A DNA stretch of 64,000 bases from an uncultured bacterium (GTDB lineage: Bacteria; Desulfobacterota; Binatia; HRBIN30; CADEER01), in contig CBFGUK010000001.1 in the NCBI GenBank assembly GCA_965651925.1, positions 3,396 to 67,395 of the forward strand. The letters are read 5' to 3'. Both the position numbers and the translations under genes were made by a program. This document shows positions 6,871-24,135 of the stretch, piece after piece. The notes under the pieces were generated by a model. It had not been told where the DNA came from. It saw only the letters and a program-made list of their open reading frames with translations, and did no database searches. Every line of letters begins with the position of its first letter. The stretch's first letter is position 1.

Positions 6871-6957
6871 CCACCGCGGCTGCGGGGACACCGAGTCGAA
6901 CCCTCGGTTCACGAGACCTGACCGACTCTCGACTCGGTGTCCTCCCAGCCGCGGTGG
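6871..6957. repeat. Conserved intergenic hairpin element, copy A (outer stem CCACCGCGGCTG/CAGCCGCGGTGG, inner stem GACACCGAGTCGA/TCGACTCGGTGTC)
   Basis: Perfect nested inverted repeats seen directly. Related copies occur at 23251-23348, 24048-24135 and (right arm only) 19246-19290. Confidence 0.7.
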
Positions 6958-6968
6958 CCAGATTCCGA

Positions 6969-6996
6969 CCGGTCACCGGTCACTGGTCACCGGTCA
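6969..6996. repeat. Tandem heptanucleotide array (CCGGTCA/CTGGTCA)x4, 8 nt downstream of the trx-TPR gene stop
   Basis: ccggtca ccggtca ctggtca ccggtca read directly; period 7. Confidence 0.8.
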
Positions 6997-7004
6997 CGCT
7001 TTTC

Positions 7005-7859
7005 CTACCGGAAGAGGACTTTTGCCAGCTCGGAACGGAAGCGGTCAGCGAGCGGATCGCCGGGACCGAGGAGATCGAAGATGTCGATCATCGCCTTGCG
7101 GGCGCCGTCGTCGCGGAAGGCGCGATCGCGCTGCACGATGGCGAGATAGTGCTCGAGCGCCTCCTCGTGGTTGCCGGCGGCGGCGAGCGCCTGGGCGAGC
7201 GTGAAGCGCGCCTCGAGGTCGTCGGGATTGGCATCCACCTGCGCGCGCAGCCCGGCCTCGTCGCCGGCGCCGGACTGGCGGATGCGGATCGCCGCCGCGA
7301 GGCGATCGGCGGCCTGACGATGCGGGCCGGGGGCGACGCGGTCGAGCAGCTCGAGCGCGGCGCTGTCCTCGTCGCGGCCCGCGAGGACCGTGGCGAGGCC
7401 GACCAGCGCCGGCTCGCAGCGCGGCTCGAGCTCGAGTGCGCGGCGGAACTCGCTTTCCGCCCCGGCGACGTCGCCGGCGGCGAGCAGCGCCTCGCCGGCG
7501 GCCGCGGTCTGTTCACCGACACTCGGCAACAGCCGGGCGAGGAACTCGCGCACCGCCGGCTCGGGCTGCGCACCGACGAACTGTGCGGCGAGCTGGCCGT
7601 CGCGCAGGCCGACGACGAACGGGATGCTCTGGACGCGGAAGACGCTGGCGAGCGCCGGATTCTCGTCGATGTTCACCTTGGCGAGCACGAAGGCACCGCC
7701 GTGTTCGTCGGCCAGGCGCTCGAGCAGCGGCCCGAGCGCGCGGCATGGTCCGCACCACGGCGCCCAGAAGTCGACCACCACCGGGACCTGCCTGGACCGT
7801 TCGATGACTTGGGCTTCGAAATCCGCGTCGGTAACGTCGATGACGTGCTGTCCGGGCAT
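7005..7859 (-). CDS. Thioredoxin domain protein with C-terminal TPR repeats (YbbN/CnoX-like co-chaperone)
   Basis: WAPWCGPC thioredoxin active site near N-terminus; C-terminal TPR-like helical repeats (EALEHYLAIVQRDRAF...). Confidence 0.8.
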   Translation of the reverse strand: MPGQHVIDVTDADFEAQVIERSRQVPVVVDFWAPWCGPCRALGPLLERLADEHGGAFVLAKVNIDENPALASVFRVQSIPFVVGLRDGQLAAQFVGAQPEPAVREFLARLLPSVGEQTAAAGEALLAAGDVAGAESEFRRALELEPRCEPALVGLATVLAGRDEDSAALELLDRVAPGPHRQAADRLAAAIRIRQSGAGDEAGLRAQVDANPDDLEARFTLAQALAAAGNHEEALEHYLAIVQRDRAFRDDGARKAMIDIFDLLGPGDPLADRFRSELAKVLFR

Positions 7860-7887
7860 GGAAGTCAGGATGCCAGATGCAGGTGAA

Positions 7888-7915
7888 GCTGTCAGCGGTC
7901 AGCCGTCGGCGGTCA
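7888..7915. repeat. Tandem heptanucleotide array (GCTGTCA GCGGTCA GCCGTCG GCGGTCA), left arm of element E, 29 nt upstream of trx-TPR start
   Basis: Direct reading; period 7; inverted relative to the 8021-8062 array. Confidence 0.75.
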
Positions 7916-8020
7916 GTCGGAAGCTGGACCGGCGCGGCGCGAAGCCCGGAATGAGGACGCCCCATGCACCCGGACCTGCTTCCGAACTTCGCGATCTTCG
8001 TCTTTGGGTTGGCTTCCCAG

Positions 8021-8062
8021 GCTGACAGCTGACTGCTGATGGCTGACAGCTGACCGCTGACA
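8021..8062. repeat. Tandem heptanucleotide array (GCTGACA)x6, right arm of element E, abutting the stop codon of the Hsp15-like gene
   Basis: gctgaca gctgact gctgatg gctgaca gctgacc gctgaca; reverse complement of the left-arm unit. Confidence 0.8.
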
Positions 8063-8063
8063 G

Positions 8064-8435
8064 CTATCCGAAGAACCGCTTCATCTGCCGCCGGTCCTTC
8101 TTCGTCGGGCGGCCGCCGCCGCGTTCGGGGTGGGGCGCGGCGGGGTCGGGTGGTGGGGGTGGCGGACTGCGATCCTCGTACAGGGCGCGTGCCGCCGTCG
8201 CCGGGCCGCGACGCTCGGCGATATCGATGACCTTCCAAATGCGTTTGCCGCCGGGGGTGGTGAACGTCACCTCGTCGCCGGGGCGGATCAGCTTGTGCGG
8301 CTTGGCGGTGGCGCCGTTCACCGTCACCTTCCCGCCGTCGCAGGCCTCGGCAGCCAGCGAGCGTGATTTGAAGGCGCGCGCCGCCCAGAGCCATCGGTCG
8401 GCGCGCGTTGCAGGGGACTGGGTCTGGTCCGTCAT
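8064..8435 (-). CDS. hslR: Ribosome-associated heat shock protein Hsp15 (S4 RNA-binding domain)
   Basis: RADRWLWAARAFKSRSLAAEACDGGKVTVNGATAKPHKLIRPGDEV matches the Hsp15 S4 domain; basic C-terminal tail. Confidence 0.7.
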   Translation of the reverse strand: MTDQTQSPATRADRWLWAARAFKSRSLAAEACDGGKVTVNGATAKPHKLIRPGDEVTFTTPGGKRIWKVIDIAERRGPATAARALYEDRSPPPPPPDPAAPHPERGGGRPTKKDRRQMKRFFG

Positions 8436-8492
8436 GTCGTCCCGGCAGAGGCGGCGGGGAGGGGGGAGCTCCCCGCCGCCGTGCCGGATCAC

Positions 8493-8711
8493 TCATGCGG
8501 CAGCGTGCTTCACCACGCCCTCCTCGTCCAGAGGGAGCGGTTCGAACGGCACCGACACGGTGTCCACGGCCGCCGGACGCTGGGCTTGCAGCACCAGCAC
8601 CAGCGTCCGCACCGCGGCGAGGAGCGCCGCGATGGCCAGACCGGTGAGGAACATGCCGCCGGACCAGGTCAGCGTCACGGGAATCACGCCCGTGTACGGA
8701 TACCAGAACAT
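8493..8711 (-). CDS. Small hypothetical membrane protein (72 aa, one TM helix)
   Basis: MFWYPYTGVIPVTLTWSGGMFLTGLAIAALLAAVRTLVLVL...; start chosen at internal ATG; no family recognised. Confidence 0.35.
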   Translation of the reverse strand: MFWYPYTGVIPVTLTWSGGMFLTGLAIAALLAAVRTLVLVLQAQRPAAVDTVSVPFEPLPLDEEGVVKHAAA

Positions 8712-8760
8712 GGAACACCTTCCTTTCAGGGTGACACTCCAGGTGCGGAACGTGCCGCGC

Positions 8761-9027
8761 CTAGGCCGCAACCGCGCGGATGCCGGTGCCGCCATTGACG
8801 CTGCTCCGCTCGACGCCGTCCGCCTCGACGGGTCCGAGGAACCACTCCATCGGCCGGCCGGTGTGGCGGGCGATGCGGAACAGAACCTCGGTCGAGGGGA
8901 TGCGGCCGTTCATGTAGTTGTAGACGGCCGACAGGCTCACGCCGATGTCGTACGCAAACGCCTTCGGCTCGTCTGCCACCACTTCGCGCAGCCGCTCAGC
9001 CACAAAATTCGCATCGAGCCCTTCCAT
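8761..9027 (-). CDS. XRE/Cro-C1-type helix-turn-helix transcriptional regulator (88 aa)
   Basis: KAFAYDIGVSLSAVYNYMNGRIPSTEVLFRIARHTG HTH motif; AGGAGG RBS 7 nt upstream of ATG. Confidence 0.7.
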   Translation of the reverse strand: MEGLDANFVAERLREVVADEPKAFAYDIGVSLSAVYNYMNGRIPSTEVLFRIARHTGRPMEWFLGPVEADGVERSSVNGGTGIRAVAA

Positions 9028-9143
9028 CGTCGAATCCTCCTTTCACAGTCGTTCGTGCTGCTCCCGCGCGCCGCGTGAGCTGACGGCTTCTCCGCCGGCC
9101 GGCCGGATCGCTCGCCGCCCTGGTCCTTCCGCGCCGAAGGGCC

Positions 9144-9187
9144 AAAAAAAAGGGCCACCGGTTTTCACCGGTGGCCCTTTGGGTTTG
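9144..9187. terminator. Strong bidirectional Rho-independent terminator (A-run, GGGCCACCGG-TTTTCA-CCGGTGGCCC hairpin, T-rich tail)
   Basis: Perfect 11-bp GC-rich stem flanked by AAAAAAAA and TTTGGGTTTG; reads as hairpin plus U8 on the minus strand, downstream of ddl. Confidence 0.85.
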
Positions 9188-9209
9188 AGATTCCTGGGGT
9201 GTGTTGCTG

Positions 9210-9380
9210 CTAGGAGACCCCTCCCGCGGGACCACCGGACGGTACCGGTCGAATGGCGATGCGCGCCTTCTTGGCGGCCGTCGCCACCGAACCCGTGTCC
9301 GTCTGCGCGCACGCGAACCACATCGCGCCGCCGTCGGCGATTAGATGATTGGTCGTGTGCGTGAACATGATCTGCATGGG
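9210..9380 (-). CDS. Possible small ORF (55 aa) between terminator and ddl; could instead be non-coding
   Basis: MQIMFTHTTNHLIADGGAMWFACAQTDTG...; no recognisable family, weak RBS. Confidence 0.2.
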   Translation of the reverse strand, partial: PMQIMFTHTTNHLIADGGAMWFACAQTDTGSVATAAKKARIAIRPVPSGGPAGGVS

Positions 9381-9539
9381 TCCCTGGATGAATTCCGTTG
9401 TGCGAATTTCCCTACACCCGCGATCGCGTCGGGCGCAAGGCATTTTCTCTCACGGTCGTGGAAGAAGGGCTTGCGGACCGCGGCGCCCGCGCTATGGGCG
9501 CGCGCCGCCCCGCCCGCGCAACGGACGGGCGTCCGGCGC

Positions 9540-10643
9540 TCAGCCCGCCGCCGCCCGCTCGCGACGCGCCGTGCAGCGCCCGATGGCGAGCTCGAGCAGA
9601 CGGCTGACGAGCGCCGGGCCGTCGATGCCGGCGGCAGCCCACATCTTCGGGTACATGCTGATCGAGGTGAACCCGGGAATGGTGTTGAGCTCGTTGACGT
9701 ACAGCGCACCGCTGTCGCGCTCGAGAAAGAAGTCGACGCGCGCCATGCCGGTACACTCGAGCGCCGCGTAGGCGCGCACGGCGAGCGCGCGCACCTGCTC
9801 GCGCGTCGCCTCGTCGAGCTCGGCGGGGACGCGCGTCTGCGCGTGGCTGTCGGCGGCGTACTTGTCCGCGTACGAGTAGAACGCCTCGCCGGGCACGATC
9901 TCGCCGGGAACGGCGGCCTGCGGGGCATCGTTGCCGAGCACGGCGCATTCGATTTCGCGCCCGTCGATGCCGCGCTCGATCAGCACCTTGGCGTCGAGCG
10001 CCAGCGCCGCCTCGATCGCCGCATCGAGCGTGGCGGCCGCGTCGGCGGCCACGCGCGTCACGCCGAGCGACGAGCCGAGGCTTGCCGGCTTGACGAACAG
10101 CGGGAAGCCGAGCGCGTCGATCGCGGCGCGCAGCGCCTCGCGCTCGGCCCGCCAGGAATGGGCGGTGACGGTGACGTACGGGACGATCGCGATGCCGGCA
10201 TCGCGCAGCAGGCGTTTGCAGACGTCCTTGTCCATGCACACCGCCGCCGCGAGCACGCCGACGCCGACGTACGGAACGTCGAACGTATCGAGCAGCCCCT
10301 GGATCGTGCCGTCCTCGCCGTACGGGCCGTGCAGCACCGGGAAGACGACGTCGACCGCCGGCAGCTCGTCGAGCGGGTGCTCGGGATCGATGAACCCGAG
10401 CCGCCCGTCGCGCGCCAGCGGCACCACCAGGCGGCCGGCGCCGGGCGCGACCTCATCCTCGAGCGCGTCGTACGCCTCCTCGTCGAGGAGATGCCAGCCG
10501 CCGCGGCGGTCGATGCCGATCAGGACCGGAGTCTGACGCTCCCGGTCGAGCGATTCGACGACGAAGCGCGACGAACGAATCGAGATCGGGTGTTCACCCG
10601 AGCGGCCGCCGAACAGGATCCCCACGCGGTCAACCGACGTCAT
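9540..10643 (-). CDS. ddl: D-alanine--D-alanine ligase
   Basis: RVGILFGGRSGEHPISIRSS... ATP-grasp Ddl hallmarks including GEDGTIQGLL and C-terminal NELNTIPGFT. Confidence 0.9.
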   Translation of the reverse strand: MTSVDRVGILFGGRSGEHPISIRSSRFVVESLDRERQTPVLIGIDRRGGWHLLDEEAYDALEDEVAPGAGRLVVPLARDGRLGFIDPEHPLDELPAVDVVFPVLHGPYGEDGTIQGLLDTFDVPYVGVGVLAAAVCMDKDVCKRLLRDAGIAIVPYVTVTAHSWRAEREALRAAIDALGFPLFVKPASLGSSLGVTRVAADAAATLDAAIEAALALDAKVLIERGIDGREIECAVLGNDAPQAAVPGEIVPGEAFYSYADKYAADSHAQTRVPAELDEATREQVRALAVRAYAALECTGMARVDFFLERDSGALYVNELNTIPGFTSISMYPKMWAAAGIDGPALVSRLLELAIGRCTARRERAAAG

Positions 10644-10674
10644 GTGCCGCCGGTTCTAGCGCCGGGGCAGCGGC

Positions 10675-10874
10675 GTGACCAGTGACCGCGTCGCGCAACG
10701 ATCCGGGAGCTGAACCGCCTTCCGGACATGGCGCTGTAGGCGGTCCTGGTTTCCGGGGCGCGAGAACGAACGGCCGGGCAAAGCCCAGCTGCCGTGACCA
10801 GTGACGAACCGAACGCTGCGGTGAAATGAGCGGAGACGACCGGTGACGGGTCACTGGTTACCAGTCACCGGTCA
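10675..10874. repeat. Composite intergenic element D: GTGACCA-type heptamer units at 10675-10688 and 10794-10807, and an inverted (CYGGTCA)x5 array at 10840-10874
   Basis: Heptamer units read directly; left and right arrays are reverse complements; lies between the ddl start and the stop of the small secreted-protein gene. Confidence 0.7.
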
Positions 10875-10882
10875 CCGCCAAC

Positions 10883-11167
10883 TCACATGTGCTCGCCCAT
10901 GCGATCGTAGGTGCCTTCCTCGCCGATCGGCTCGTAGCCGAAGATCTCGTCGAGGCCGGGGCGGGACACAATGTAGTGCAGCGGGCGCATCACCAGCCAT
11001 TCGACGGTGTAGCCCACCGGATGGATCAGGTAGTACGCGAGGCGAAGCGGGTGGCTGAACGCGTCCTCGTACTGTTCCTCGTCCGGGTAGCGATCGGCGG
11101 CGCCGGCCGTGCCGGTCCCGAGCGCAAGCATCGCCGTCATCATCGCAATCGCCAGCAGTCGCTTCAT
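10883..11167 (-). CDS. Small secreted hypothetical protein (94 aa, signal peptide)
   Basis: MKRLLAIAMMTAMLALGTGTAGAADRYPDEEQYED...; GGAG RBS; the upstream part of the 221-aa ORF is Arg-rich artefact. Confidence 0.5.
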   Translation of the reverse strand: MKRLLAIAMMTAMLALGTGTAGAADRYPDEEQYEDAFSHPLRLAYYLIHPVGYTVEWLVMRPLHYIVSRPGLDEIFGYEPIGEEGTYDRMGEHM

Positions 11168-11232
11168 CGAAGAGCTCCTTCCGCGTCGGCAGCGTAGCGG
11201 GCACCGGTGCCCCCGGCAACCGCGAACTGTAC

Positions 11233-12036
11233 TCAAAATTTGCCGTCGGGCTGACGATAGCCGATCAGGCTGACCTGACGGCCCGCCTGGCCGCCGCTGG
11301 CGCGATGCGAGAAGTACGCCCCGGCGGCACAGCGCGTACACGGACCGACGCTGGCGATCGCCTCGCCGCGGGCGCCGGCGGCGACGAGGATGGCGCGGTT
11401 CGCGGCGCGCAGATCGAGCTGCCCAAGGCGCCCGGCGGGCTGCCAGGCATCGGGCAACGCCCCCCAGCGGTCGGTCAGGCGCGCCCCGATCTCCGCTTCG
11501 ACCTCGTAGCAGCAGCCGCCGATCGAGGGGCCGAGCGCGAGCTGCCACGCCTCAAGCGGAATGCCGAGTGCCGTGCGGGCCTCCGTCAGGGCTGCTGCGG
11601 CGATGCCGGCGAGCGTTCCGCGCCAGCCGGCGTGCACGGCAAGCACGGCCCCGTGTGCCGGTGCCACGCCGAGCAGCGGCACGCAGTCGGCGGTCAGGAC
11701 AGCGAGCCCGACGCCATGGCTGGCGGCGAGCATCGCGTCCGCCTCGCCGACCGGCTCGTCCGGCGCCGAGACGTGCACGACGCGCGCGCCATGCACCTGG
11801 TGCATGCGCACGATGCGCAGCCCCGGCGCGGCGCGCGCCACGCGGCGCCAGTTCGCATCAACCGCCGCCGGCTCGTCGCCGACCGCCGCCGAGACGTTGA
11901 GCGACGCAAACGGCCCGGTGCTGTGGCCGCCGTGGCGACCGAAAAAGCCGTGCGTCAGGCCCGCGATGTCCGCCCAGGCCTCGACCCGCACGGCGGGCGG
12001 CGGGGTGGCATCGGGGACGCCCGGGACGGCAGCCAT
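11233..12036 (-). CDS. pgeF: Peptidoglycan editing factor PgeF / YfiH (polyphenol oxidase-like purine nucleoside phosphorylase family)
   Basis: GLTHGFFGRHGG...ADCVPLLG...HAGWRG motifs of the YfiH/DUF152 family. Confidence 0.8.
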   Translation of the reverse strand: MAAVPGVPDATPPPAVRVEAWADIAGLTHGFFGRHGGHSTGPFASLNVSAAVGDEPAAVDANWRRVARAAPGLRIVRMHQVHGARVVHVSAPDEPVGEADAMLAASHGVGLAVLTADCVPLLGVAPAHGAVLAVHAGWRGTLAGIAAAALTEARTALGIPLEAWQLALGPSIGGCCYEVEAEIGARLTDRWGALPDAWQPAGRLGQLDLRAANRAILVAAGARGEAIASVGPCTRCAAGAYFSHRASGGQAGRQVSLIGYRQPDGKF

Positions 12037-12039
12037 CGC

Positions 12040-12252
12040 TCAGCGCAATTCGCGCTTCACCAGCACCTGACCGTCGAGCGGCTCGCCCTTCGGCCCGGTG
12101 CGTCGTCCGCCGCGCTTCCCGAGTGTCGCCAGCGTGTCCGGGTTCACCCACGGCACGCCGTAGACACACGGCTTCGCCTGCCCGTCCTCGTCGATCGCCT
12201 CCTGGCTCGGAAACTCCGCGCGCGAGAAGTTGCTGACCAGTCGCTTGCCCAT
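12040..12252 (-). CDS. Hypothetical small protein (70 aa); start uncertain (alternative ATG at 12384)
   Basis: MGKRLVSNFSRAEFPSQEAIDEDGQAKPCVYGVPWVNPDTL...; stop is 4 nt from the pgeF start; no family recognised. Confidence 0.3.
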   Translation of the reverse strand: MGKRLVSNFSRAEFPSQEAIDEDGQAKPCVYGVPWVNPDTLATLGKRGGRRTGPKGEPLDGQVLVKRELR

Positions 12253-12506
12253 AACAGCCGACCGATATCGGAAGCGATGCGCGGAGCCAATGCCCCCCGG
12301 AGTCGCCGCTCGCTGCTCGAGCGCTCGTGGAATCAACACCGCCAGGGCGCCCGGGACGCCAAGTCCGGAATGAGTCGTTCCCATGGCGTCCTGGCGGTTC
12401 AACTTCGGATTGTTGCTGGGCGTACGGAAGCCCGCCCGCTCCGGTCGCAACCAGGCCGCGTTGAATCGCCCATGGGCGGTTGGTAGACGAACCGTTCGGC
12501 GCGCGG

Positions 12507-15344
12507 ATGGAATACAAGCACACTCTGAACCTGCCGCAGACGGACTTTCCGATGCGCGGCAACCTCCCGGCACGCGAACCCGAGATCCTGCAGCGGTGGC
12601 GCGACGGACGGCTCTACCAGCGGCTGCTCGACCAGACCGCCGGCGGCGAGCGCTACGTGCTGCACGACGGTCCGCCGTACGCGAACGGCAACGTGCACCT
12701 CGGCACGGCGCTGAACAAGATCATCAAGGACATCATCGTCAAGCATCAGCTCATGTGCGGACGGCACGCGCCGTACGTGCCGGGGTGGGACTGCCACGGC
12801 ATGCCGATCGAGCATCAGGTGCTGCGCGATCTCGGCGCCCAGGCGCGCGCCCTGCCCCGCCTCGAGATCCGCCGGCGCTGCCGCGCGTTCGCCGAGAAGT
12901 TCGTCGGCGTGCAGCGCGAACAGTTCCAGCGCCTCGGCGTGCTCGGCGACTGGGAACACCCGTACCTGACGATGACGCCGGAGTACGAGGCGGCGATCGT
13001 CCGCGTGTTCCGCCGCCTCGTCGAGCGCGGCTTCATCTACCGCGGCCTGCGCCCGGTGCACTGGTGCGCGGTGTGTTCGACGGCGCTCGCCGAGGCGGAG
13101 GTCGAGTACACCGACCACGTCTCGCCCTCGATCTACGTACGTTTTCCGTTCACCGGCACGGCCGACGACGCCGCCGCGCTCGCGCGTCGCCCGGACGATG
13201 CGGCGCGCCTTCGCGACGCGGCCGCGGCGGGCCGGCTGTCGGTGGTGATCTGGACCACGACGCCGTGGACGCTGCCGGCGAATCTCGCAGTCTGCTTCAA
13301 CCCGGCGCTCGACTACGTCGCGCTCGATCTCGGCGACGAGACGGTGATCGTCGCTGCGCGCCTCGCCGAGGCGTTCCTCGCCGCCACCGGCCTCGCCGCG
13401 CAGGAAGGGCGGCGCATGCCGATCGACGTCCTGCCGCTCGACGGGCGCGACGTGTTCCGCCATCCCCTGTTCGACCGTGCCTCGCGTGCCGTGTTCGAGT
13501 CGCACGTCACCGCCGACACCGGCACGGGCTGCGTGCACACCGCACCCGGCCACGGCTACGAGGACTTCCAGGTCGGGCAGAAGTACGGCCTGCCGACGCT
13601 GACGCCGGTCGATGCGCACGGCCGCTTCACCGACGAGGCCGGCCCGTACGCCGGCGGCAAGGTGTTCGAGAGCAATGCGCGCATCGTCGACGACCTGCGC
13701 GCCGCCGGCCGCCTCGTGCACGGCGAGTCGCACGCGCATGCGTACCCGCACTGCTGGCGCTGCAAGAACCCGCTGATCTTCCGCGCCACCGAGCAGTGGT
13801 TCCTGCGCGTCGATCACGCCGGCCTGCGCGAGACCGCGCGCGCCGAGATCGACACCGTGCGCTGGGTGCCGCAGTGGGGCCATGACCGCATCAGCAACAT
13901 GATGCAGACGCGCCCCGACTGGTGCCTGTCGCGCCAGCGCGCCTGGGGCGTGCCGATTCCCGCCTTCGCCTGCGACGGCTGCGGCGCGTTCCACGCCGAC
14001 CCGGCCGTGATCGCGCACGTCGAGGCGATCTTCCGCGAACGCGGCGCCGATGCCTGGTACGAGCTGGCGCCGCGCGAGCTGCTGCCGGCCGGCTACCGCT
14101 GTGCGTGTGGCAGCGAGGCGTTCACGCCCGACGACAACATCCTCGACGTCTGGTTCGATTCCGGCTGCTCGCACGACGCGGTGCTGCACGAGCGCGGGCT
14201 CGGCTGGCCCGCCGATTTGTACGTCGAGGCGGTCGACCAGCACCGCGGCTGGTTCCAGGTCTCGCTGATCACCGCGGTGGCGACCGCCGGCAAGGCGCCG
14301 TACCGCGGCGTGCTGACGCACGGCCTCATCCTCGACCAGCACGCGAAGAAGATGTCGAAGTCGCTCGGCAACGTCATCGCACCCGAGGAGATCATCGCGA
14401 AGCACGGCGCCGACATCCTGCGCCTGCTGTTCGCCTCGGTCGACTTCACCGCCGACACCTGTTTCTCGCAGAACCTCGTCACGCCGCTGCTCGAGAGCTA
14501 CCGCAAGATCCGCAACACCTGCCGCTTCCTGCTCGGCAACCTCGCCGGCTTCGATCCGGCGCGCGACACCGTGCCGGTCGACGCGCTGCCGGAGCTCGAC
14601 CGCTGGATCCTGCATCGCGGCCAGCAGCTGCTCGCGCGCGCCCGCGGCGCCTACGACGAGTTCACGTTCCACCACGTCGTGCAGGGGCTGGTGAACTTCT
14701 GCGCCGTCGACCTCAGCGCGCTCTATCTCGACATCGTCAAGGACCGCCTCTACACCTCGGCGCCCGACGCCCACGGTCGGCGCGCGGCGCAGACGACGCT
14801 CTGGCACCTGCTCGACCTGCTCGTCCGCACGATGGCGCCGATCCTGTCGTACACGGCCGACGAGATCTGGACCTACGTGCCCGGGCGGCAGGCGGCGTCG
14901 GTGTTCGAGGCCGGGCTGCCGGCAGTCGATCCGGCGCTGGTCGACGACGCGCTCGCGGCGCGCTGGGAACAGATCCTCGCCGCCCGCGCCGTGGTCACGA
15001 AGGCCCTCGAGGAGGCGCGCAAGAGCGGCGCGATCGGCCATTCGCTCGATGCGCGCGTGCAGCTCGTCGCCGGTCCCGCGCTGCGGCCGATTCTCGACAG
15101 CCTGCGCGACACGCTGCCGGCACTGTTCATCGTCTCACAGGTCGAGCTCGCCGAGACGCTCGCCGACAGCCCGCACCACGCGCGCTCGGACGATCTCGCG
15201 GTCGCCGTGATGCCGGCGCGCGGCGCGAAGTGCGGCCGCTGCTGGAACTTCAGCGAGGCGGTCGGGCGCGATGCCGGGCACCCGGAGCTCTGCGAGCGCT
15301 GCCTGCCGGTGGTCCAGGCGCTGCCGGCGCAGGCGCATCCGTGA
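12507..15344 (+). CDS. ileS: Isoleucine--tRNA ligase
   Basis: MEYKHTLNLPQTDFPMRGNL N-terminus, PPYANGNVHLG (HIGH) and KMSKSLGN motifs; C-terminal zinc-binding CxxC pairs. Confidence 0.95.
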   Translation: MEYKHTLNLPQTDFPMRGNLPAREPEILQRWRDGRLYQRLLDQTAGGERYVLHDGPPYANGNVHLGTALNKIIKDIIVKHQLMCGRHAPYVPGWDCHGMPIEHQVLRDLGAQARALPRLEIRRRCRAFAEKFVGVQREQFQRLGVLGDWEHPYLTMTPEYEAAIVRVFRRLVERGFIYRGLRPVHWCAVCSTALAEAEVEYTDHVSPSIYVRFPFTGTADDAAALARRPDDAARLRDAAAAGRLSVVIWTTTPWTLPANLAVCFNPALDYVALDLGDETVIVAARLAEAFLAATGLAAQEGRRMPIDVLPLDGRDVFRHPLFDRASRAVFESHVTADTGTGCVHTAPGHGYEDFQVGQKYGLPTLTPVDAHGRFTDEAGPYAGGKVFESNARIVDDLRAAGRLVHGESHAHAYPHCWRCKNPLIFRATEQWFLRVDHAGLRETARAEIDTVRWVPQWGHDRISNMMQTRPDWCLSRQRAWGVPIPAFACDGCGAFHADPAVIAHVEAIFRERGADAWYELAPRELLPAGYRCACGSEAFTPDDNILDVWFDSGCSHDAVLHERGLGWPADLYVEAVDQHRGWFQVSLITAVATAGKAPYRGVLTHGLILDQHAKKMSKSLGNVIAPEEIIAKHGADILRLLFASVDFTADTCFSQNLVTPLLESYRKIRNTCRFLLGNLAGFDPARDTVPVDALPELDRWILHRGQQLLARARGAYDEFTFHHVVQGLVNFCAVDLSALYLDIVKDRLYTSAPDAHGRRAAQTTLWHLLDLLVRTMAPILSYTADEIWTYVPGRQAASVFEAGLPAVDPALVDDALAARWEQILAARAVVTKALEEARKSGAIGHSLDARVQLVAGPALRPILDSLRDTLPALFIVSQVELAETLADSPHHARSDDLAVAVMPARGAKCGRCWNFSEAVGRDAGHPELCERCLPVVQALPAQAHP

Positions 15345-15850
15345 CGAAGTCCGCGTTCGTCGCGCTGGTCGCCGGCAGCGTGGTCGTCGTCGACCAGCTC
15401 ACCAAGGCGCTGATCCGGGCGGAGCTCGCGTTGCACGACGGCTTCGCGGTCGTGCCCGGCTTCTTCTCGATCATCCACGCCGCGAACCGCGGCGCCGCCT
15501 TCAGCCTGTTCGCGGATGCGCACGACGGCGTGCGGCTGCCGTTCTTCTTCATCGCCGCCGCGGTGGCGATCGGCTTCCTGGTCTACTTCATCCGCCAGGT
15601 CGCCCCGTCGCAGCGCTGGCTGCTGTTCGCGCTCGCCGGCGTGCTCGGCGGTGCGATCGGCAATCTCGTCGACCGGGTGCTGTTCGGTGCCGTCACCGAC
15701 TTCCTCCTCCTCCATTACCGCGGCTGGGCGTGGCCGGCGTTCAACGTCGCCGACACGTTCATCACCATCGGCGTGATCATTCTGATCGCGCACTCGCTGT
15801 TCGGCGACGACCCCTCGCCGGCCGCGCGCACCAGCGCCGAACACGGCTGA
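15341..15850 (+). CDS. lspA: Lipoprotein signal peptidase II
   Basis: GTG start overlapping ileS stop (GTGA); NRGAAFS and FNVAD motifs, four TM helices. Confidence 0.85.
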   Translation: MTKSAFVALVAGSVVVVDQLTKALIRAELALHDGFAVVPGFFSIIHAANRGAAFSLFADAHDGVRLPFFFIAAAVAIGFLVYFIRQVAPSQRWLLFALAGVLGGAIGNLVDRVLFGAVTDFLLLHYRGWAWPAFNVADTFITIGVIILIAHSLFGDDPSPAARTSAEHG

Positions 15851-15893
15851 GCGGCGCTCGCCTCGTCGCGCCGCGCGGGCTAACACGTCGCGC

Positions 15894-16799: not shown

Positions 16800-16856
16800 C
16801 GTGAACCGCGACGAGCGCGGACGGGGCGGCGGTTCGGAAGGGGGCACAAAACACGA

Positions 16857-16886
16857 ACGGCCGGCGCGGGAATCCGCGCCGGCCGT
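16857..16886. terminator. Bidirectional terminator hairpin between convergent OMP gene and glnA (CGGCCGGCGCGG-gaat-CCGCGCCGGCCG)
   Basis: 12-bp perfect GC stem seen directly between two convergent stops; a second small hairpin follows (GATCCCGCgaGCGGGATC). Confidence 0.6.
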
Positions 16887-16909
16887 CGTGCTCGATCCCG
16901 CGAGCGGGA

Positions 16910-18322: not shown

Positions 18323-18404
18323 TGTGGCACTACCTCCTTGCGTTGTTGCGGTGCTCCCGTGCCCCGGGAGCGCGGCGGTTGAGAGATGAAAATGGAGCAG
18401 CGGA

Positions 18405-18908
<504 letters not shown>

Positions 18909-19228
18909 TCACGCGGCACTTCGGTCCATACCGACGCGCCACACTCCCGCGTCCGCACTCGTTTCGCCTTCCCGACCGGTCGGTAATGACCGGCATCACT
19001 TCTTCTGATGCTGATTTTTTCGCAAACGGACGGATGCTGTCCGTCTCCGGCTCGGTGTTGAAGCAACGGGCATGCCCGATGCGAGTTGCTGGTGGACATG
19101 GCGGTCGCGTGATCGGCTGGCTGTCGCCAGCTGCCTGCAAACTGGGCAGTGCCCATGGAGTGAGCACCTGGCGGGACGCTTTGGGCGGCGATCAGCCGCG
19201 GAGGGGTGAGGGCGAAGGAGGAATCGCA

Positions 19229-19345
19229 ATGGGCCGAGGGAACACTCGACTTCGTGTCCTCGTCACCTCGGTGGCCGATCCAGTTGAAGAACCGCCGGCG
19301 CGCACGGACGGACACAAAGAGCGTCGCCGCAGTTGGCAAGGCTGA
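19229..19345 (+). CDS. Possible small ORF (38 aa) with near-perfect SD (GAAGGAGGAATCGCAATG); may be non-coding
   Basis: MGRGNTRLRVLVTSVADPVEEPPARTDGHKERRRSWQG; overlaps a partial copy of the conserved hairpin right arm (ctcgacttcgtgtcctcg, 19246-19263). Confidence 0.2.
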   Translation: MGRGNTRLRVLVTSVADPVEEPPARTDGHKERRRSWQG

Positions 19346-19381
19346 GGGGTTGTGTTAGGCACCGGCACTTCCGGCACGGCA

Positions 19382-19458
19382 GTTCACAACGGGGTGTAGC
19401 TCAGACTGGTAGAGCGCACGGTTCGGGACCGTGAGGTCGCTGGTTCAAGTCCAGTCAC
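19382..19458 (+). tRNA. tRNA-Pro (anticodon CGG)
   Basis: Cloverleaf folded by hand: acceptor CGGGGTG/CACCCCG, D-arm GCTC...GAGC, anticodon stem CACGG/CCGTG with loop TTCGGGA, T-arm GCTGG-TTCAAGT-CCAGT, discriminator A plus encoded CCA. Confidence 0.85.
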
Positions 19459-19474
19459 CCCGACCATTTCTTCC

Positions 19475-20122
19475 ATGCTGCGGACGATGCTCGCGTGGGC
19501 CGTGCTTCTCGGCTCGGTGTTCGCCGCCGGGCGCGGCGCGGCCGAGCCGGGGCCGGCGACGGTGCATGGCGCGGCGGCCGTGAACGTGCGCCAGCAGCCC
19601 AGCGCCGACAGCCGCGCGATCGAGTCGTTGCCGCGCGGCAGCCGGGTCACGGTCGAAGACACGACGGGCGACTGGTCGCACGTGGTCCTCGACGACGGCC
19701 GGCGCGGATACATGCGCTCCAGCTTCCTCGCACCGGTTGTCACCGAAGCGGCCGAGACAGCGGCCACGGCGACGCCGACGACGGGTGTGGCCGGAACGCC
19801 GATCGAGGCGCCAGCGCCCGATGCGGCCGGGCCGGCGCCGGCAGTGGACCACGAGCTCGAGCAGCTGCACGAACGGCTGGCGGCGCTCGAGGCGGCGCTG
19901 GCGGCCACCGCACAGCCGACCGCGACGCACCTGCCGGGCGCCGGCGCGTCCCATCCCGCGATCCCGGCAGCGCCGGTGGCGACCATCGTCGTGCCCCCCG
20001 CGGCGCTGGACGTGGGTCCGGCGCTGGCACTCGCGGGCGTCGGACTGATCGTCGGCTTCCTGTTCGGCACGCTATACGGCCAGCGCCAGGAACGCAGTCG
20101 GCGCTCGCGCGTCCGCTTCTGA
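19475..20122 (+). CDS. Secreted SH3b-domain protein with Ala/Pro-rich linker and C-terminal membrane anchor
   Basis: Signal peptide MLRTMLAWAVLLGSVFAAG; SH3b-like motif AAAVNVRQQPSADSRAIESLPRGSRVTVEDTTGDWSHVVLDDGRRGYM; C-terminal ALALAGVGLIVGFLFGTLYG TM helix. Confidence 0.65.
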   Translation: MLRTMLAWAVLLGSVFAAGRGAAEPGPATVHGAAAVNVRQQPSADSRAIESLPRGSRVTVEDTTGDWSHVVLDDGRRGYMRSSFLAPVVTEAAETAATATPTTGVAGTPIEAPAPDAAGPAPAVDHELEQLHERLAALEAALAATAQPTATHLPGAGASHPAIPAAPVATIVVPPAALDVGPALALAGVGLIVGFLFGTLYGQRQERSRRSRVRF

Positions 20123-20216
20123 GCGTTGGCCGGCCGCGGCAGCGGCCGCCCCGACGATCCGCACGCCGCGCGCGCCCTCTGCCGCCGATCGGGCTGCGGC
20201 AAATCGCGGCGCGAAC

Positions 20217-20879
20217 TCACGCCGCCGGCGCGGTGAGTCGCCGGATCTCGTCGACCGTCGCCCGGTAGTCGGGGGTGTCGAAGATGCCGGTGCCGATGAC
20301 GAACACCTCGGCGCCGGCGGCGGCGATTTCGGCGACGTTGTGCGTCTTCACGCCGCCGTCCACCTCGATCAGCAGGTCGAGGCCGCGCTCGCGCTTGGTG
20401 CGCTGTGCGAGGGCGAGCTTCTCGAGCGCCGACGGGATGAACGCCTGGCCGCCGAAGCCGGGATTGACGCTCATCACCAGCACCATCTCGAGATCGGGCA
20501 GGATGCTGTCGAGCGTGTGGAACGGCGTCGCCGGATTGAGGACCGCAGCGGGCCGGCAGCCGTGGTTGCGGATGTCCTGCACGACCGCGTGCAGGTGCGG
20601 GCAGGTCTCCTGGTGCACGGAGATGTACGTTGCGCCGGCGCGCGCGTACTCGCCGATGTAGCGCTCGGGGTTGGTGATCATGAGATGGACGTCGAGCGGC
20701 AGCGACGTGCAGCGGCGGATCGCTTCGACGACCGGCGGCCCGATGGTCAGGTTGGGCACGAAGTGCCCGTCCATGACGTCGACGTGGATCCAGTCCGCGC
20801 CGGCATCCTCGACGGCCTTCACCTCCTCGCCCAGCCGGGCGAAGTCGGCGGCGAGAATCGATGCGGCTATCCGCGTCAC
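20217..20879 (-). CDS. rpe: Ribulose-phosphate 3-epimerase
   Basis: IAASILAADFARLGEEV...HVDVMDGHFVPNLTIG...MSVNPGFGGQ; GTG start inferred 10 nt after the rsmB stop. Confidence 0.85.
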   Translation of the reverse strand: MTRIAASILAADFARLGEEVKAVEDAGADWIHVDVMDGHFVPNLTIGPPVVEAIRRCTSLPLDVHLMITNPERYIGEYARAGATYISVHQETCPHLHAVVQDIRNHGCRPAAVLNPATPFHTLDSILPDLEMVLVMSVNPGFGGQAFIPSALEKLALAQRTKRERGLDLLIEVDGGVKTHNVAEIAAAGAEVFVIGTGIFDTPDYRATVDEIRRLTAPAA

Positions 20880-20889
20880 GCTGCGGACG

Positions 20890-22299
20890 CTATCGCGGAT
20901 CGCCACCGGAAGCGAGGCGCAGGCGCGCGGCGAAGAAGCCGTCGAGCCCGTGCCGGTGCGGCGCGGTGCGCAAGATGCCGCGGGCATCGAGCAGCGCATG
21001 CGCGGCAGCGGGCAGCAGCGGTCGCGGATCTTCGATCCGGAAGGCCGGATGCGCGGCGAGGAAGCGGTCGAGCACGTCGTCGTTCTCGATGCGGGCGATC
21101 GTGCAGGTGGCGTACACCAGCACGCCGCCGGGGCGCACGGCGCTGCTCACGGCTGCCAGCAGGTTCGCCTGCAGGTCGGCGAGCGCGGCGAGGTCGTCGG
21201 GCGTGCGCCGCCAGCGGATCTCCGGGTGCTGGCGCAGCGTGCCGAGCCCCGAACACGGGGCGTCGACGAGCACCGCGTCGAACTGCTGCCCGGCGCGAAA
21301 CGGCGGCGTGGCCGCATCGGCCTGCAGCGCCGCGACCCGCACGCCGAGCCGCACCGCCTCGCGCTGCGCGCGCGCCAGCCCCGCGCCGTGCAGGTCGCCG
21401 GCGACGACGAGGCCGCGCTCGCCGACCGCGCACGCGAGCGCGAGCGACTTGCCGCCCGGCGCGGCGCACGCGTCGAGCACGCGATCGCCAGGCCCGGCAC
21501 CGACGAGCAGGCCGACGAGCTGCGAGGCTTCGCCCTGCACGGCAAACCAGCCCGCGGCATGGCCGGGCAGCTGCGCGGGATCGAGCGGCGCCTCGAGCAC
21601 CACGCCGTCTGGCGCATAGGTGGTGGGCCGGGCCGTGAGGTCGGCGGCGGCGAACGCCTCGAGCAGCGCCGCGCGCGAGATGCGCGCGGCGTGGACGCGC
21701 AGCACCGTCGGCGCCGGCTCGTTGTCGGCGGCGAGCAGCGCCTCGGTCTCGGCCGCACCGAGCTCGGCGAGCCAGCGCTCGACCAGCCACTGCGGATGCG
21801 AATACTCGCTCGCCAGCACCGCGGCGCGGTCGGCGCCGGGCGGCGCCCCGAGCGCGGGCTGCTCGCGCAGGAAGCGGCGCAGCAGCGCGTTGACGAGGCC
21901 GCTCGGCGCACCGCCCTTGATCGTCCGGGCGAGCTCGACCGCGGTATCGACGGCGGCGAACTCCGGCACGCGGTCGAGCTTGATCAGCTGGAACAGCGCC
22001 ATTCGCAACAGCGTCCGCACCGCGGCGTCGAGCTGCTCGGGCGGCCGTCCGAGCCGCGTCAGTGCCTGATCGAGCAACCCCTGCCAGGCGAGCGTGCCGT
22101 AGACGAGCCGCGTCGCCAGCGCGCGGTCGCGCGGCGCGAGCGCGGCGCCGGCGAGCGCACTGCCGAGCACGGCATCGGCGTACGCGCCGTCCTCGACCGC
22201 ATTCAGCACGCGCCAGGCGAGCTGGCGCGCCTCACTCGTGCGCGGCCGGCGCGCCAAGGCGGTCTCCGACGGCCAGCGCGCCACCGCGCGCGAACTCAC
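20890..22299 (-). CDS. rsmB: 16S rRNA (cytosine967-C5)-methyltransferase RsmB/Sun; true start probably internal, near the fmt stop at ~22230
   Basis: NusB-like N-domain plus SAM-MTase motifs (DACAAPGGKS, DAPCSGLGT). The annotated ATG overlaps fmt by 68 nt, so a downstream non-ATG start is likely. Confidence 0.8.
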   Translation of the reverse strand: MSSRAVARWPSETALARRPRTSEARQLAWRVLNAVEDGAYADAVLGSALAGAALAPRDRALATRLVYGTLAWQGLLDQALTRLGRPPEQLDAAVRTLLRMALFQLIKLDRVPEFAAVDTAVELARTIKGGAPSGLVNALLRRFLREQPALGAPPGADRAAVLASEYSHPQWLVERWLAELGAAETEALLAADNEPAPTVLRVHAARISRAALLEAFAAADLTARPTTYAPDGVVLEAPLDPAQLPGHAAGWFAVQGEASQLVGLLVGAGPGDRVLDACAAPGGKSLALACAVGERGLVVAGDLHGAGLARAQREAVRLGVRVAALQADAATPPFRAGQQFDAVLVDAPCSGLGTLRQHPEIRWRRTPDDLAALADLQANLLAAVSSAVRPGGVLVYATCTIARIENDDVLDRFLAAHPAFRIEDPRPLLPAAAHALLDARGILRTAPHRHGLDGFFAARLRLASGGDPR

Positions 22300-23182
22300 G
22301 CGCCGGAAGCGGCTTGCGGCCCTCGAGCTGCAGCGTCGCGATCGCCAGCGTGCCGTCGCCGGTGGCGACGCGGATCACGTCGTCGATGCCGGTCACCGTG
22401 CCCGGCGGCGCCGCGCCGCCCGCCGGCTCGGCCCGCGCCGCGTGCACCTTGAGCCGCCGGTCACCGAGCGTGGTGTACGCGGATGGCCAGGGATGGAAGC
22501 CGCGCACCCGGCGCGCGAGCTCGGTCGCCGGCCGTTGCCAGTCGATCACCCCCTGCTCGCGCGCAATCATCGGCGCCAGCGTCGCCTGCTGGTGATCCTG
22601 CGGCGTCGCGGTCAGCGTGCCGGCGTGCAGGGCCGCCAGGGCGTCCATCAGCGCCTCCGCACCGAGCGTCGCGAGGCGTGTCTGCAAGGCGCCGTAGGTC
22701 TCGTCTGGACCGATCGGGGTCGCCCGCTGCAGCAGGATGTCGCCCTCGTCCATGCGCTCGTTCATGCGCATGATCGTCACGCCGGTTTCGCGGTCGCCGG
22801 CGAGAATGGCCCACTGAATCGGCGCCGCGCCACGCCAACGCGGCAGCAGCGAGGCATGCACGTTGATGCAGCCCAGCCGCGGCAGCTCGAGGATGCGCGA
22901 CGGCAGGATGCGGCCATAGGCGGCGACGACCGCGAGATCGGGCGCCCACGCGGCCAGCTGCGCCGGCAGCTCGTCGGTCTTCACCCGCAGCGGTTGCGCG
23001 ACCGCGATTCCGTGCTGCTCGGCGAGCTGCTTCACCGGCGGCGCCTGCAGGCGCTGTCCGCGCCCGGCGGGCCGGTCGGGCTGGCTGACGACGCCGACCA
23101 CCTGATCGGGGCCGTCGAGCAGCGCATGCAGACTTGGCACCGCGAAGTCCGGCGTGCCGAAGAAAACGATGCGGTAGCGCAT
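22232..23182 (-). CDS. fmt: Methionyl-tRNA formyltransferase
   Basis: MRYRIVFFGTPDFAVPSL...INVHASLLPRWRGAAPIQ; ATG at 23180-23182. The longer ORF N-terminus merely translates heptamer array B. Confidence 0.9.
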   Translation of the reverse strand: MRYRIVFFGTPDFAVPSLHALLDGPDQVVGVVSQPDRPAGRGQRLQAPPVKQLAEQHGIAVAQPLRVKTDELPAQLAAWAPDLAVVAAYGRILPSRILELPRLGCINVHASLLPRWRGAAPIQWAILAGDRETGVTIMRMNERMDEGDILLQRATPIGPDETYGALQTRLATLGAEALMDALAALHAGTLTATPQDHQQATLAPMIAREQGVIDWQRPATELARRVRGFHPWPSAYTTLGDRRLKVHAARAEPAGGAAPPGTVTGIDDVIRVATGDGTLAIATLQLEGRKPLPAREFARGGALAVGDRLGAPAAHE

Positions 23183-23186
23183 GGGA

Positions 23187-23221
23187 GCGGTCAGCAGTCG
23201 GCCGTCAGCGGTCAGCCGACC
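23187..23221. repeat. Tandem heptanucleotide array B (GCGGTCA GCAGTCG GCCGTCA GCGGTCA GCCGACC), starting 5 nt upstream of the fmt start codon
   Basis: Period-7 units read directly; replaces any Shine-Dalgarno sequence for fmt. Confidence 0.75.
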
Positions 23222-23250
23222 GATTCGAGAATCCGCCACCGAGGGCAGCG

Positions 23251-23348
23251 AGGACACCGGGTCGAGTCATCAGAACCACCACCGGGAACAGAGCGAGTCG
23301 ACCATCAGCACCGAGGGGACGGAACCAGTTCGACGTCGTGTCCTCCCG
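23251..23348. repeat. Conserved intergenic hairpin element copy B (GGACACCGGGTCGAG ... TTCGACGTCGTGTCCTCCC), degenerate
   Basis: Arms match copy A at 6887-6944; the downstream conserved tail GTGGCCAATCGGTCCGG matches A (GTGGCCAGATTCCGACCGG). Confidence 0.65.
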
Positions 23349-23395
23349 ACTTCCGTGGCCAATCGGTCCGGCAACGGAGAGGTCCGGGAAACACG

Positions 23396-23956
23396 TCAGA
23401 TGCCGGGCTCGTCGGGGTGCTCGGGCGCGCGCTTGAAGGTGTCGAGATCGACGCCGTCGCGGATCATCTTGCGCAGCTTGCGCCGGTAGGAGTCGCGCTT
23501 GAGCGGGCTGATCCGGTCGATGAACAGCTTGCCGTCGAGATGGTCGAGCTCGTGCTGCAGCGCCACGGCGAGCAGCCCCTCGGCCTCGAGCGCGACCTCC
23601 TGCTGCTCGGGCGTCCACGCCTTGAGCAGGATCCGCGCGCTGCGCTTCACCTCGGCGCTGTAGTCGACCACCGACAGGCAGCCCTCTTCCCAGAGGATCG
23701 TGCCCTCGCGCTCGGCGATCACCGGATTGATCAGCTTCAGCAGGTGCTTGCCGGGATTCTCGCCGTCGACGTCGACGACGATCATGCGCTCGCTGATGCC
23801 GATCTGCGGCGCGGCGAGCCCGACCCCCGGCGCCGCGTACATCGTCTCGGCCATGTCGCGCAGCACCTCGTCGGTGGTGCCGTCGATGTTCGCGACCTCG
23901 ACCGCCGTCTCCTTCAGCACCGGCTCGGGGTACTTGAGAATGCGACGCAGCGCCAT
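23396..23956 (-). CDS. def: Peptide deformylase
   Basis: MALRRILKYPEPVLKE...GVGLAAPQIG...EGCLSV...HELDHLDG motifs 1-3; ATG at 23954-23956. Confidence 0.9.
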   Translation of the reverse strand: MALRRILKYPEPVLKETAVEVANIDGTTDEVLRDMAETMYAAPGVGLAAPQIGISERMIVVDVDGENPGKHLLKLINPVIAEREGTILWEEGCLSVVDYSAEVKRSARILLKAWTPEQQEVALEAEGLLAVALQHELDHLDGKLFIDRISPLKRDSYRRKLRKMIRDGVDLDTFKRAPEHPDEPGI

Positions 23957-24047
23957 CGCCGTACCGTAGCCGAATCCCGCCGGCGATGCAGCAGGCCCCA
24001 CCGGCCGCCGGTGTCCCGTCGAACGCTGCCCCCGCTGAGGTCCCTCT

Positions 24048-24135
24048 GAGGCGCTGACACGAAGTCGAGCAATTCCTTCGACTCCGCGTCCTCTGCGCCT
24101 CGCTGGCACACCCGCTCGCCAAACCGTCAGAGTTG
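24048..24135. repeat. Conserved intergenic hairpin element copy C (GAGGCGC-TGACACGAAGTCGAG...TTCGACTCCGCGTCCTCTGCGCCTC plus conserved tail GCTGGCACAC)
   Basis: Outer 7-bp stem GAGGCGC/GCGCCTC and inner GTCGA/TCGAC palindrome; homologous to copies A and B. Confidence 0.6.

Follow-up and report, generated by a model that had tools for sequence, protein, structure and literature searches.

Among the small repeats described from bacterial intergenic DNA, the Correia or NEMIS elements of Neisseria and the ERIC/IRU elements of enterobacteria are palindromic repeats of the miniature inverted-repeat transposable element (MITE) type, about 70-150 bp long, and Correia elements have a TA target-site duplication. 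REPINs are doublets of inverted repetitive extragenic palindromic (REP) sequences which, together with the spacer between them, fold as a hairpin, and decayed remnants are found alongside the intact copies (PMC3116915). Their spacers are of characteristic length, with segments of 71 or 110 bp in SBW25, and they occur in hundreds of copies, accompanied by a RAYT gene (PMC3116915). The intergenic GGGAATC heptamer repeats of Xanthomonas lie on average 28 nt from the end of the upstream open reading frame (ORF) (Rehm et al. 2015, PMC4692102). Here, an inverted repeat is described from a stretch of 64,000 nt (the window; 71% G+C) of contig CBFGUK010000001.1, which belongs to an uncultured bacterium of the class Binatia. 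The element, present at four loci (A, B, C and D), is a real, previously uncatalogued, small intergenic inverted-repeat family, and its most plausible reading is that of an ordinary, small repeat of mobile type, and not that of a conserved regulatory RNA. The more specific proposal, that it constitutes a small, non-coding, intergenic and lineage-specific family of non-autonomous palindromic repeats resembling REPINs or MITEs, has in our judgement about an even chance of being right.

The repeated entity is a unit of ~31-45 nt, found seven times in the window, with the consensus TCGAC-N3-GTGTCCTC-N8/9-GGTGGCC. In the alignment of the arms, the blocks TCGAC, GTGTCCTC and GGTGGCC are constant and the blocks N3 and N8 are variable, and in several arms GGTGGCC is followed by an outer extension, (A)GATTC-CGA-CGGTC. 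The unit is made up of three degenerate tandem copies of CTCGGTG, 1-2 nt apart, with TCGA as its inner cap and GGCC(A)GATTC as its outer cap; this tandem make-up can be followed in the left arm of B (CCCGGTG-TC-CTCGCTG-CC-CTCGGTG) and in D (CTTCGTG-TC-CTCGTCA-C-CTCGGTG). The seven units form three inverted pairs, A, B and C, plus one full unit in pair D, whose left arm is truncated, and the arms of one pair are more alike than the arms of different copies. None of the copies is coding or interrupts a gene, the four loci being situated in spacers between called genes.

These spacers belong to a string of minus-strand genes with the order priA - def - fmt - rsmB - rpe ... glnA ... ddl ... trx-TPR - LLM. 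Copy A is found between the end of trx-TPR and the beginning of the LLM gene. Its left arm, GCCACCGCGGCTGCGGGGACACCGAGTCGA (6870-6899, plus strand, as are all the arms given here), has its outer end 31 nt from the ATG of the LLM oxidoreductase gene (6838, minus strand); a loop of 29 nt (6900-6928), with no relation to those of B and C, separates it from the right arm, TCGACTCGGTGTCCTCCCAGCCGCGGTGGCC, which with its tail, AGATTCCGACCGG, occupies 6929-6972 (unit 6929-6959). Copy B, between def and fmt, begins with a left tail, CCGATTCGAGAATCC, followed by the left arm, GCCACCGAGGGCAGCGAGGACACCGGGTCGA (23220-23265; unit 23235-23265). Its interior of 64 nt (23266-23329) contains a weak additional stretch resembling a left arm, CCACCACCGGGAACAGAGCGAGTCGA, at 23277-23304, and its right arm, TCGACGTCGTGTCCTCCCGACTTCCGTGGCC, with the tail AATCGGTCCGG (23330-23371; unit 23330-23360), has its end 24 nt away from the stop codon of def (23396-23398). 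Copy C, between priA and def, has a degenerate left arm (24040-24068) with a 3-nt deletion with respect to the right arm, and its outer end is 83 nt from the def ATG (23956); after a spacer of only 9 nt the right arm, TCGACTCCGCGTCCTCTGCGCCTCGCTGGCAC, extends over 24078-24110. Copy D is found in a non-coding gap of 650 nt between a minus-strand glnB/P-II gene and a plus-strand tRNA-Pro gene (19390), and consists of a truncated left arm, GGGCCGAGGGAACAC (GGGCC-GAGGGAACAC; 19231-19245), abutting the TCGA of a full right unit, TCGACTTCGTGTCCTCGTCACCTCGGTGGCCGATCC (19246-19281).

A preliminary description of this DNA had reported copies that are indeed present where it had placed them, and the genes it had named around them (LLM/trx, fmt/def and def/priA) are confirmed. 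It had presented them as a fixed element of ~90-130 nt, a view that has to be replaced by that of a unit of ~31-45 nt arranged in inverted pairs, whose spacers (29, 64 and 9 nt) differ strongly. What it had taken as a right-arm-only copy (19246-19290) retains a truncated left arm, so that D is a decayed pair and not a solitary right arm. The 3' tail that it had considered conserved (GGCC-A-GATTC-CGA-CGGTC) is present in the right arm of A, in both arms of B and, partly, in D; it is missing from the left arm of A and from either arm of C. The adjacency to heptamer arrays, already pointed out there, is upheld. Thus, an array of ACCGGTC x4.3 (6968-6997; GTGACCG in the mRNA sense), into which the right tail of A runs, begins 7 nt after the trx-TPR stop (7005-7007); another of AGCGGTC x4.4 (23186-23216) immediately precedes the fmt coding sequence (ATG 23182) and adjoins the left-arm tail of B on its outer side; and a third one, of CCGGTCA x7.3 (24154-24205), is 2 nt from the priA stop (24208-24210), 43 nt outside the unit in C. 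The arrays begin 0-10 nt past stop codons.

Taking into account that the genome has 71% G+C, and that low-level partial matches to the motif are common (as with the right arm of A as query at a threshold of 20), it could be argued that the copies are chance resemblances among GC-rich intergenic DNA, with no real feature behind them. Two tests refute this explanation, whose probability is practically negligible. The core 16-mer, TCGACTCGGTGTCCTC, has 8 matches with up to 3 mismatches against 1.55 expected, a number that 0 of 100 shuffles reach. The right arm of A (31 nt), used as the sole query so that the test is not circular, finds 6 sites with at least 22/31 identity against 0.29 expected (100 dinucleotide shuffles, maximum 3 sites), and these six sites are exactly known arms. 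Every match is intergenic, and the matches are laid out as inverted pairs. Copy A is also the longest and best local inverted repeat of the whole window, with 30-nt arms, 93% complementary, around its 29-nt loop.

The comparison with relatives, the best named ones for Fmt, Trx-TPR and LLM being found in 'Candidatus Binatia' and 'Deltaproteobacteria' metagenome-assembled genomes (MAGs), places the element in this lineage. In four relatives whose Fmt is 79% identical (L092-L095), def and fmt are separated by 23 nt, versus 213 nt here, the extra DNA in the window being copy B and its heptamer array; in two others (L096 and L098, 74-76%) the same spacer is unrelated and unstructured. The element is absent from the def-fmt spacers of L092, L096 and L098. 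It is likewise absent at trx-LLM, both from L114 (Trx 77% identical, same gene order), whose spacer of 324 nt is unrelated and has no excess structure, and from L116 (LLM 94% identical), a contig that starts inside an inverted (GTCACCG)4 array (1-27) and continues with 57 nt to the ATG. The closest-relative data for this spacer are short Logan contigs, nine of which (L104-L112, Trx 92% or 86% identical) end ~32 nt after the stop, inside the same array, (GTGACCG)n, as in the window. Apparently, close relatives have two heptamer arrays in inverted orientation in the place that is taken here by one array and copy A; such a pair would break a k-mer graph, which is consistent with the ends of the Logan contigs. 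A search with nhmmer, using a profile of the unit, found no copy in ~130 kb of the relatives' syntenic loci. This half-unit profile makes a more sensitive search than a covariance model, which three sequences under-determine and for which MAFFT misaligns the arms, given their variable spacers. The relatives being at most 94% identical at the protein level, no clean empty site can be defined; even so, an element missing from their spacers is to be considered lineage-specific and insertion-like, and not a conserved leader. A conserved cis-regulatory leader or attenuator has thus been rejected, the unit being absent from relatives' spacers that are short or unstructured.

Searches of databases and sequence collections give a similar picture of rarity. 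At Rfam gathering thresholds, the window yields only tRNA and ZTP matches and nothing at the elements, and an E-value scan adds only generic matches to long-hairpin miRNA precursors, at 23-35 bits versus thresholds of 100-128; the element, to which the preliminary description had given no family name, matches none in Rfam. The exact pattern TCGAC-N3-GTGTCCTC-N8/9-(S)GTGGC, which fits 3-4 of the 7 window arms, gave 31 singletons in 185,579 species genomes, 58 in JGI metagenomes and 0 in viral contigs, neither scan returning the window's own sequence. On inspection and after a search for inverted partners, the singletons were all chance matches, mostly in coding DNA, with one exception. Against a plasmid collection, the heptamers were the only part of the query with blastn matches.

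The exception, L028, is a contig from a MAG labelled as Acidobacteriota (CAYPHP010000078.1; 63% G+C over 8 kb), in which a hairpin at 6550-6630 lies between convergent ORFs, one of them cation-transporter-like by eye. It is the sole collection match with an inverted partner. Its 27-nt arms consist of three CACCGAG/CTCGGTG repeats (AGC-CACCGAG-G-CACCGAG-AG-CACCGAG ... CTCGGTG-TC-CTCGGTG-C-CTCGGTG-GCT), and they represent a pristine form of the architecture of the unit, to which this hairpin is possibly related or towards which it has possibly converged.

The folding of the copies was compared with that of shuffled sequences, the minimum free energies (MFE) of A, B and C being calculated in the mRNA (minus) sense. 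Copy A reaches -75.1 kcal/mol (z -8.2) and copy C -44.9 kcal/mol (z -3.4); copy B, with -54.5 kcal/mol, does no better than its shuffles (z +0.65), and the D unit alone gives -15.5 on the plus and -13.8 on the minus strand (z +0.18 and +0.99). Owing to G-U pairs, the mRNA-sense strand of C folds ~10 kcal/mol more stably than its complement. Arm against arm, 28/31 columns are Watson-Crick pairs in A and 22/31 in B, where the mismatches fall mostly in the N3 and N8 blocks. Of the second stem that had been described as nested around the core, therefore, only the form in A is intact, and that in B has its variable blocks unpaired. Within a pair, the variable block is kept in both arms, as CAGCCGC in A and as GCGCCTC in C, that is, with compensatory differences. 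What is common to all arms is a set of sequence blocks, not a shared stable fold.

These results bear on a possible selection of the elements as RNA hairpins, acting in protection from 3' exonucleases, in processing by RNase III/E, or in the uncoupling of neighbouring genes in polycistronic transcripts, roles that have been reported for the REP/BIME of E. coli and the Correia elements of Neisseria. Such selection would agree with the high stability of A and C with respect to shuffles, with the strand preference of C, with the covariation of the variable blocks inside A and inside C, with the position of the copies between co-directional genes, and with the apparent presence, in the same trx-LLM spacer of close relatives, of inverted GTGACCG arrays that differ in sequence and also form hairpins. 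Nevertheless, B is devoid of excess structure and D has none, the orthologous spacers at 74-79% identity are short or unstructured, and the blocks are conserved as sequence in both arms, whether they pair or not, so that we regard this explanation as quite unlikely.

Conservation that is block-wise, strand-symmetric and independent of arm pairing, as in B, is what could be expected from half-sites in the DNA, recognised at TCGAC / GTGTCCTC / GGTGGCC by a nucleoid-associated protein, a recombinase or a regulator, and the vicinity of housekeeping genes would also suit such sites. Against this proposal, which seems highly improbable, the half-sites are between 9 and 64 nt apart, a variation that a fixed dimer operator does not admit; in relatives, the same promoters and spacers lack them; no candidate binding protein is linked; and no sigma-70-like promoter was found in the region.

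Other identities were considered and discarded. Intrinsic terminators were rejected because no T-run follows any copy, and none of the 9 terminator-like sites located in 6500-24500 coincides with an element; the elements are neither intrinsic terminators nor conserved regulators. A promoter function was equally rejected, with no sigma-70-like site in the 18 kb scanned, and likenesses to sigma-54, ECF, NtrC and LexA-box sites were dismissed by eye. Integron attC sites, CRISPR and retrons were rejected on their anatomy and because no partner genes were noticed here. The same region does hold canonical U-tract terminators at 9149-9180 and 16856-16887, both on the minus strand and the second one after glnA. 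The first is bidirectional (AAAGGGCCACCGGTG-AAAA-CCGGTGGCCCTTTTTTTT), its stem being flanked by an A-tract and a T-tract, and it explains weak sub-threshold matches to Rfam small RNAs at 9137-9222; its stem has GGCCACCGG in common with the outer stem of the element.

The surroundings of the copies are unusual in themselves. Period-7 arrays of the types GGTCACC/GGTGACC and GCTGACN/CAGCNGT are found at 6968-6997, 7887-7926, 8026-8065, 10676-10691, 10794-10807, 10839-10878, 23186-23216 and 24154-24205. Six heptamer arrays and the four element loci all lie within 6.9-24.2 kb, and neither a unit copy nor a heptamer array was found in the other ~47 kb of the window or in extensions of 3.4 kb and 1.5 kb that other assemblies of this strain provided. 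In the spacer between the S4/Hsp15 gene and trx, the inverted arrays 7887-7926 and 8026-8065 form a long hairpin (z -5.4, -6.0). At the equivalent site, a relative with 92% identity in Trx (L104, 440-520) forms a hairpin from a different repeat, CGCCAAG (z -3.0, -3.8), and a relative with 86% (L112) forms none. Upstream of trx, this last contig has hexamer arrays, (GGTATC)n and (GATGCC)n, at 545-600, which could pair through G-U wobbles in trx-sense RNA; the 148 nt directly upstream of its trx (545-692), which may not span both hexamer arrays, have no excess folding (z +0.33, -0.62).

Gene order also changes here. In three relative lineages (L092, L096 and L098) priA and def are 4-8 kb apart, with other genes between them, and they are adjacent only in this window, copy C being located at that junction. 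With respect to L092, amt has been lost, the SH3 gene is inverted and tRNA-Pro is directly upstream of it, and copy D is at this junction. Altogether, gene order differs from the relatives at 3 of the 4 element loci, and the synteny differences from these three lineages span 18744-24207 of the window. In the region of L092 (Fmt 79%) that is syntenic to copy D, other types of heptamer, NNNTCCTG and TCCTGGA, flank the SH3-domain gene (13034-13062 and 13938-13963).

It could be proposed from this setting that the elements are a local by-product of repeat-driven rearrangement, that is, scars in one unstable region of 17 kb and not members of a genome-wide mobile family. According to this scheme, slippage would expand the heptamers and the 8-9-mer CTCGGTG, fold-back or template-switch repair would produce inverted copies at breakpoints, and templated repair or gene conversion would later carry the 35-nt unit to a few spacers in the vicinity. 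The grouping of all loci and arrays, the synteny breaks at three of the loci, and a unit that itself consists of three tandem CTCGGTG repeats (as is seen more clearly in the arm of L028) are all in line with it, as are the nearby hairpin armed with inverted heptamer arrays, the hairpin that the 92% relative builds at the same site from CGCCAAG, and the fact that neither a target-site duplication nor a transposase was found. On the other side, the units have 31-45 nt in common, including the non-repetitive caps TCGAC and GGCC-A-GATTC, so that independent growth in situ is insufficient and a copying mechanism is still needed; copy B lies in a def-fmt junction that is otherwise intact and not rearranged; and the clustering may be a sampling effect, since 69 kb of the genome have been seen. 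The scheme is unlikely, although it has to be taken seriously.

A still bolder proposal derives both kinds of structure, CTCGGTG-unit hairpins and heptamer-array hairpins, from a single process of this Binatia lineage that would be new to science. Such a process would build inverted arrays of short tandem repeats immediately past stop codons, and would keep the position as the sequence turns over between close relatives. The finding of GTGACCG, CAGCNGT, CGCCAAG and CTCGGTG versions at the same or equivalent spacers points in this direction. We consider it very unlikely, but if true it would mean either a dedicated mechanism of repeat writing or repair, or selection for an RNA 3'-structure that is independent of sequence.

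The origin of the family as non-autonomous DNA of REPIN or MITE type is preferred. It would most likely have arisen and spread by being copied, as an inverted doublet, into permissive spacers that separate co-directional genes and are next to heptamer microsatellite arrays, with decay after insertion: A would have stayed intact, C would have been eroded, B would have diverged and enlarged its interior, and D would have suffered the truncation of one arm. As the copies are inside operon-like strings of genes, they are probably transcribed together with their neighbours; A and, more weakly, C would then give rise to long RNA hairpins, which by analogy with known repeats may incidentally act as determinants of processing or stability. 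Mobility, its mechanism and any effect on RNA are what we infer from the anatomy and distribution of the copies. Among the possibilities initially listed for the element, the REP/BIME-like or MITE option is the one that fits best, with inverted doublets, a decayed copy, an extragenic position and absence at orthologous sites. An sRNA or attenuator family is not supported, since the element is missing in the spacers of relatives (74-94% protein identity), B has no excess fold and there is no U-tract.

Several observations weigh against this preferred origin. Only four loci were seen in the ~69 kb examined, and none in ~52 kb of it; their confinement to 17.3 of ~69 kb would have a probability of (17.3/69)^3 ~0.02 under uniform placement, and the GC-skew profile gives no origin or terminus signal that explains it. 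The preliminary description had also named, among the grounds for refuting it, a genome-wide scan without additional copies, and this has come about by half, with none found in the 69 kb of this organism or the ~130 kb of relatives. No genome with multiple copies appeared in the collection scans; either those collections do not contain the genome of this organism, or they contain what lies outside this region, in which case few further copies, and none with the exact pattern, would exist, and the mobile-family explanation would be weakened. No internal dyad is common to the seven units and the D unit alone has no fold of its own, REP units being palindromic. The compensatory differences of A and C do not tell, with three copies, whether pairing was selected or whether the pairs originated by inverted duplication. 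Motifs of RAYT or IS200 type (YxxxNP and WQxxYW-type regular expressions) were not found in the six-frame translation of the window, which is a weak test; by inspection, no direct repeat indicative of a target-site duplication was seen outside the ends of any of the four copies. There is also no parent insertion sequence with the same inverted repeats inside the window.

If the REPIN- or MITE-like origin is correct, this would be the first palindromic repeat family described for the uncultured class Binatia, biologically ordinary and useful for annotation, for explaining breaks of short-read assemblies at spacers, and as a strain marker. The context is more interesting than the element, as one housekeeping region of 17 kb is crowded both by period-7 arrays and by hairpins with arms of short tandem repeats, and these structures change in sequence, and not in place, among relatives at 86-94% identity. 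Should a mechanism or a selected RNA role stand behind them, it would be relevant to a long-standing puzzle, the excess of heptamer repeats in the intergenic DNA of high-G+C bacteria.

Elsewhere in the window, the ZTP match mentioned above corresponds to a ZMP/ZTP riboswitch (48180-48262, minus strand; 55.2 bits, above the Rfam gathering threshold) located between two genes named by eye, one folE-like (48333-48902) and the other class-V aminotransferase-like (46987-48135). Long low-complexity repeats with periods of 6, 12 or 18 nt (484-2445, 33700-34000 and 35700-36100) encode linker-like segments rich in Thr, Pro, Ala and Arg of large, secreted-looking proteins, and they dominate the output of a generic repeat finder. 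A 'tRNA-???' called by ARAGORN at 34071-34158, near one low-complexity tract, is probably spurious.

When the element is set against the described systems, integron attC sites resemble it in being imperfect inverted repeats of ~57-141 bp, conserved at the ends and variable in the middle, placed between co-oriented genes. However, RYYYAAC/GTTRRRY cores are lacking, the unit ending in GCCACC...GGTGGC and, on its inner side, in GTCGA...TCGAC, and the genes on either side are not cassettes but core housekeeping genes whose order is conserved; no integrase was noticed among the recognised genes, housekeeping or hypothetical, of the window and of the relatives' syntenic loci, where no integrase-specific search was made. 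With MITEs such as Correia and ERIC, the likeness lies in long terminal inverted repeats around a less conserved interior, in a size of about 70-150 bp, in the intergenic position, with a putative RNA hairpin resulting from co-transcription with the neighbours, and in presence or absence between related genomes. The arms of the Binatia element measure 30-31 nt, or up to ~45 nt with their tails, and those of A are 93% complementary. It differs from MITEs in that neither a target-site duplication, nor a parent insertion sequence, nor promoter- or IHF-like features were detected here, and in that its arms are built from a tandem 8-9-mer.

REPINs share with it the extragenic location, the two inverted short conserved sequences with a spacer, predicted to form a hairpin in single-stranded DNA or mRNA, the decayed or partial copies beside intact ones, and a lineage-specific sequence. 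Inverted pairs exist at all four loci, and their folding is strong in A, moderate in C and unsupported in B, with one arm truncated in D. Nevertheless, the classical REP unit is an imperfect palindrome and the Binatia unit is not, the spacers of 9, 29 and 64 nt do not have a characteristic length, and there are four loci here with no RAYT motif in the 64 kb, according to the weak regular-expression test. Thus, the element is proposed to work like a REPIN or a MITE and is filed as neither, because its unit is not palindromic, no target-site duplication or transposase was found, and only four loci are seen. The neighbouring arrays, for their part, resemble the short tandemly repeated repetitive (STRR) sequences of cyanobacteria and the GGGAATC repeats of Xanthomonas, since they have a period of 7, are intergenic and mostly lie between co-oriented genes, are only a short distance (0-10 nt here) from where the upstream ORF ends, and vary in length and sequence between close relatives. 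A candidate difference from both is that the Binatia arrays also form inverted-pair hairpins and abut a dispersed unit of 35 nt.

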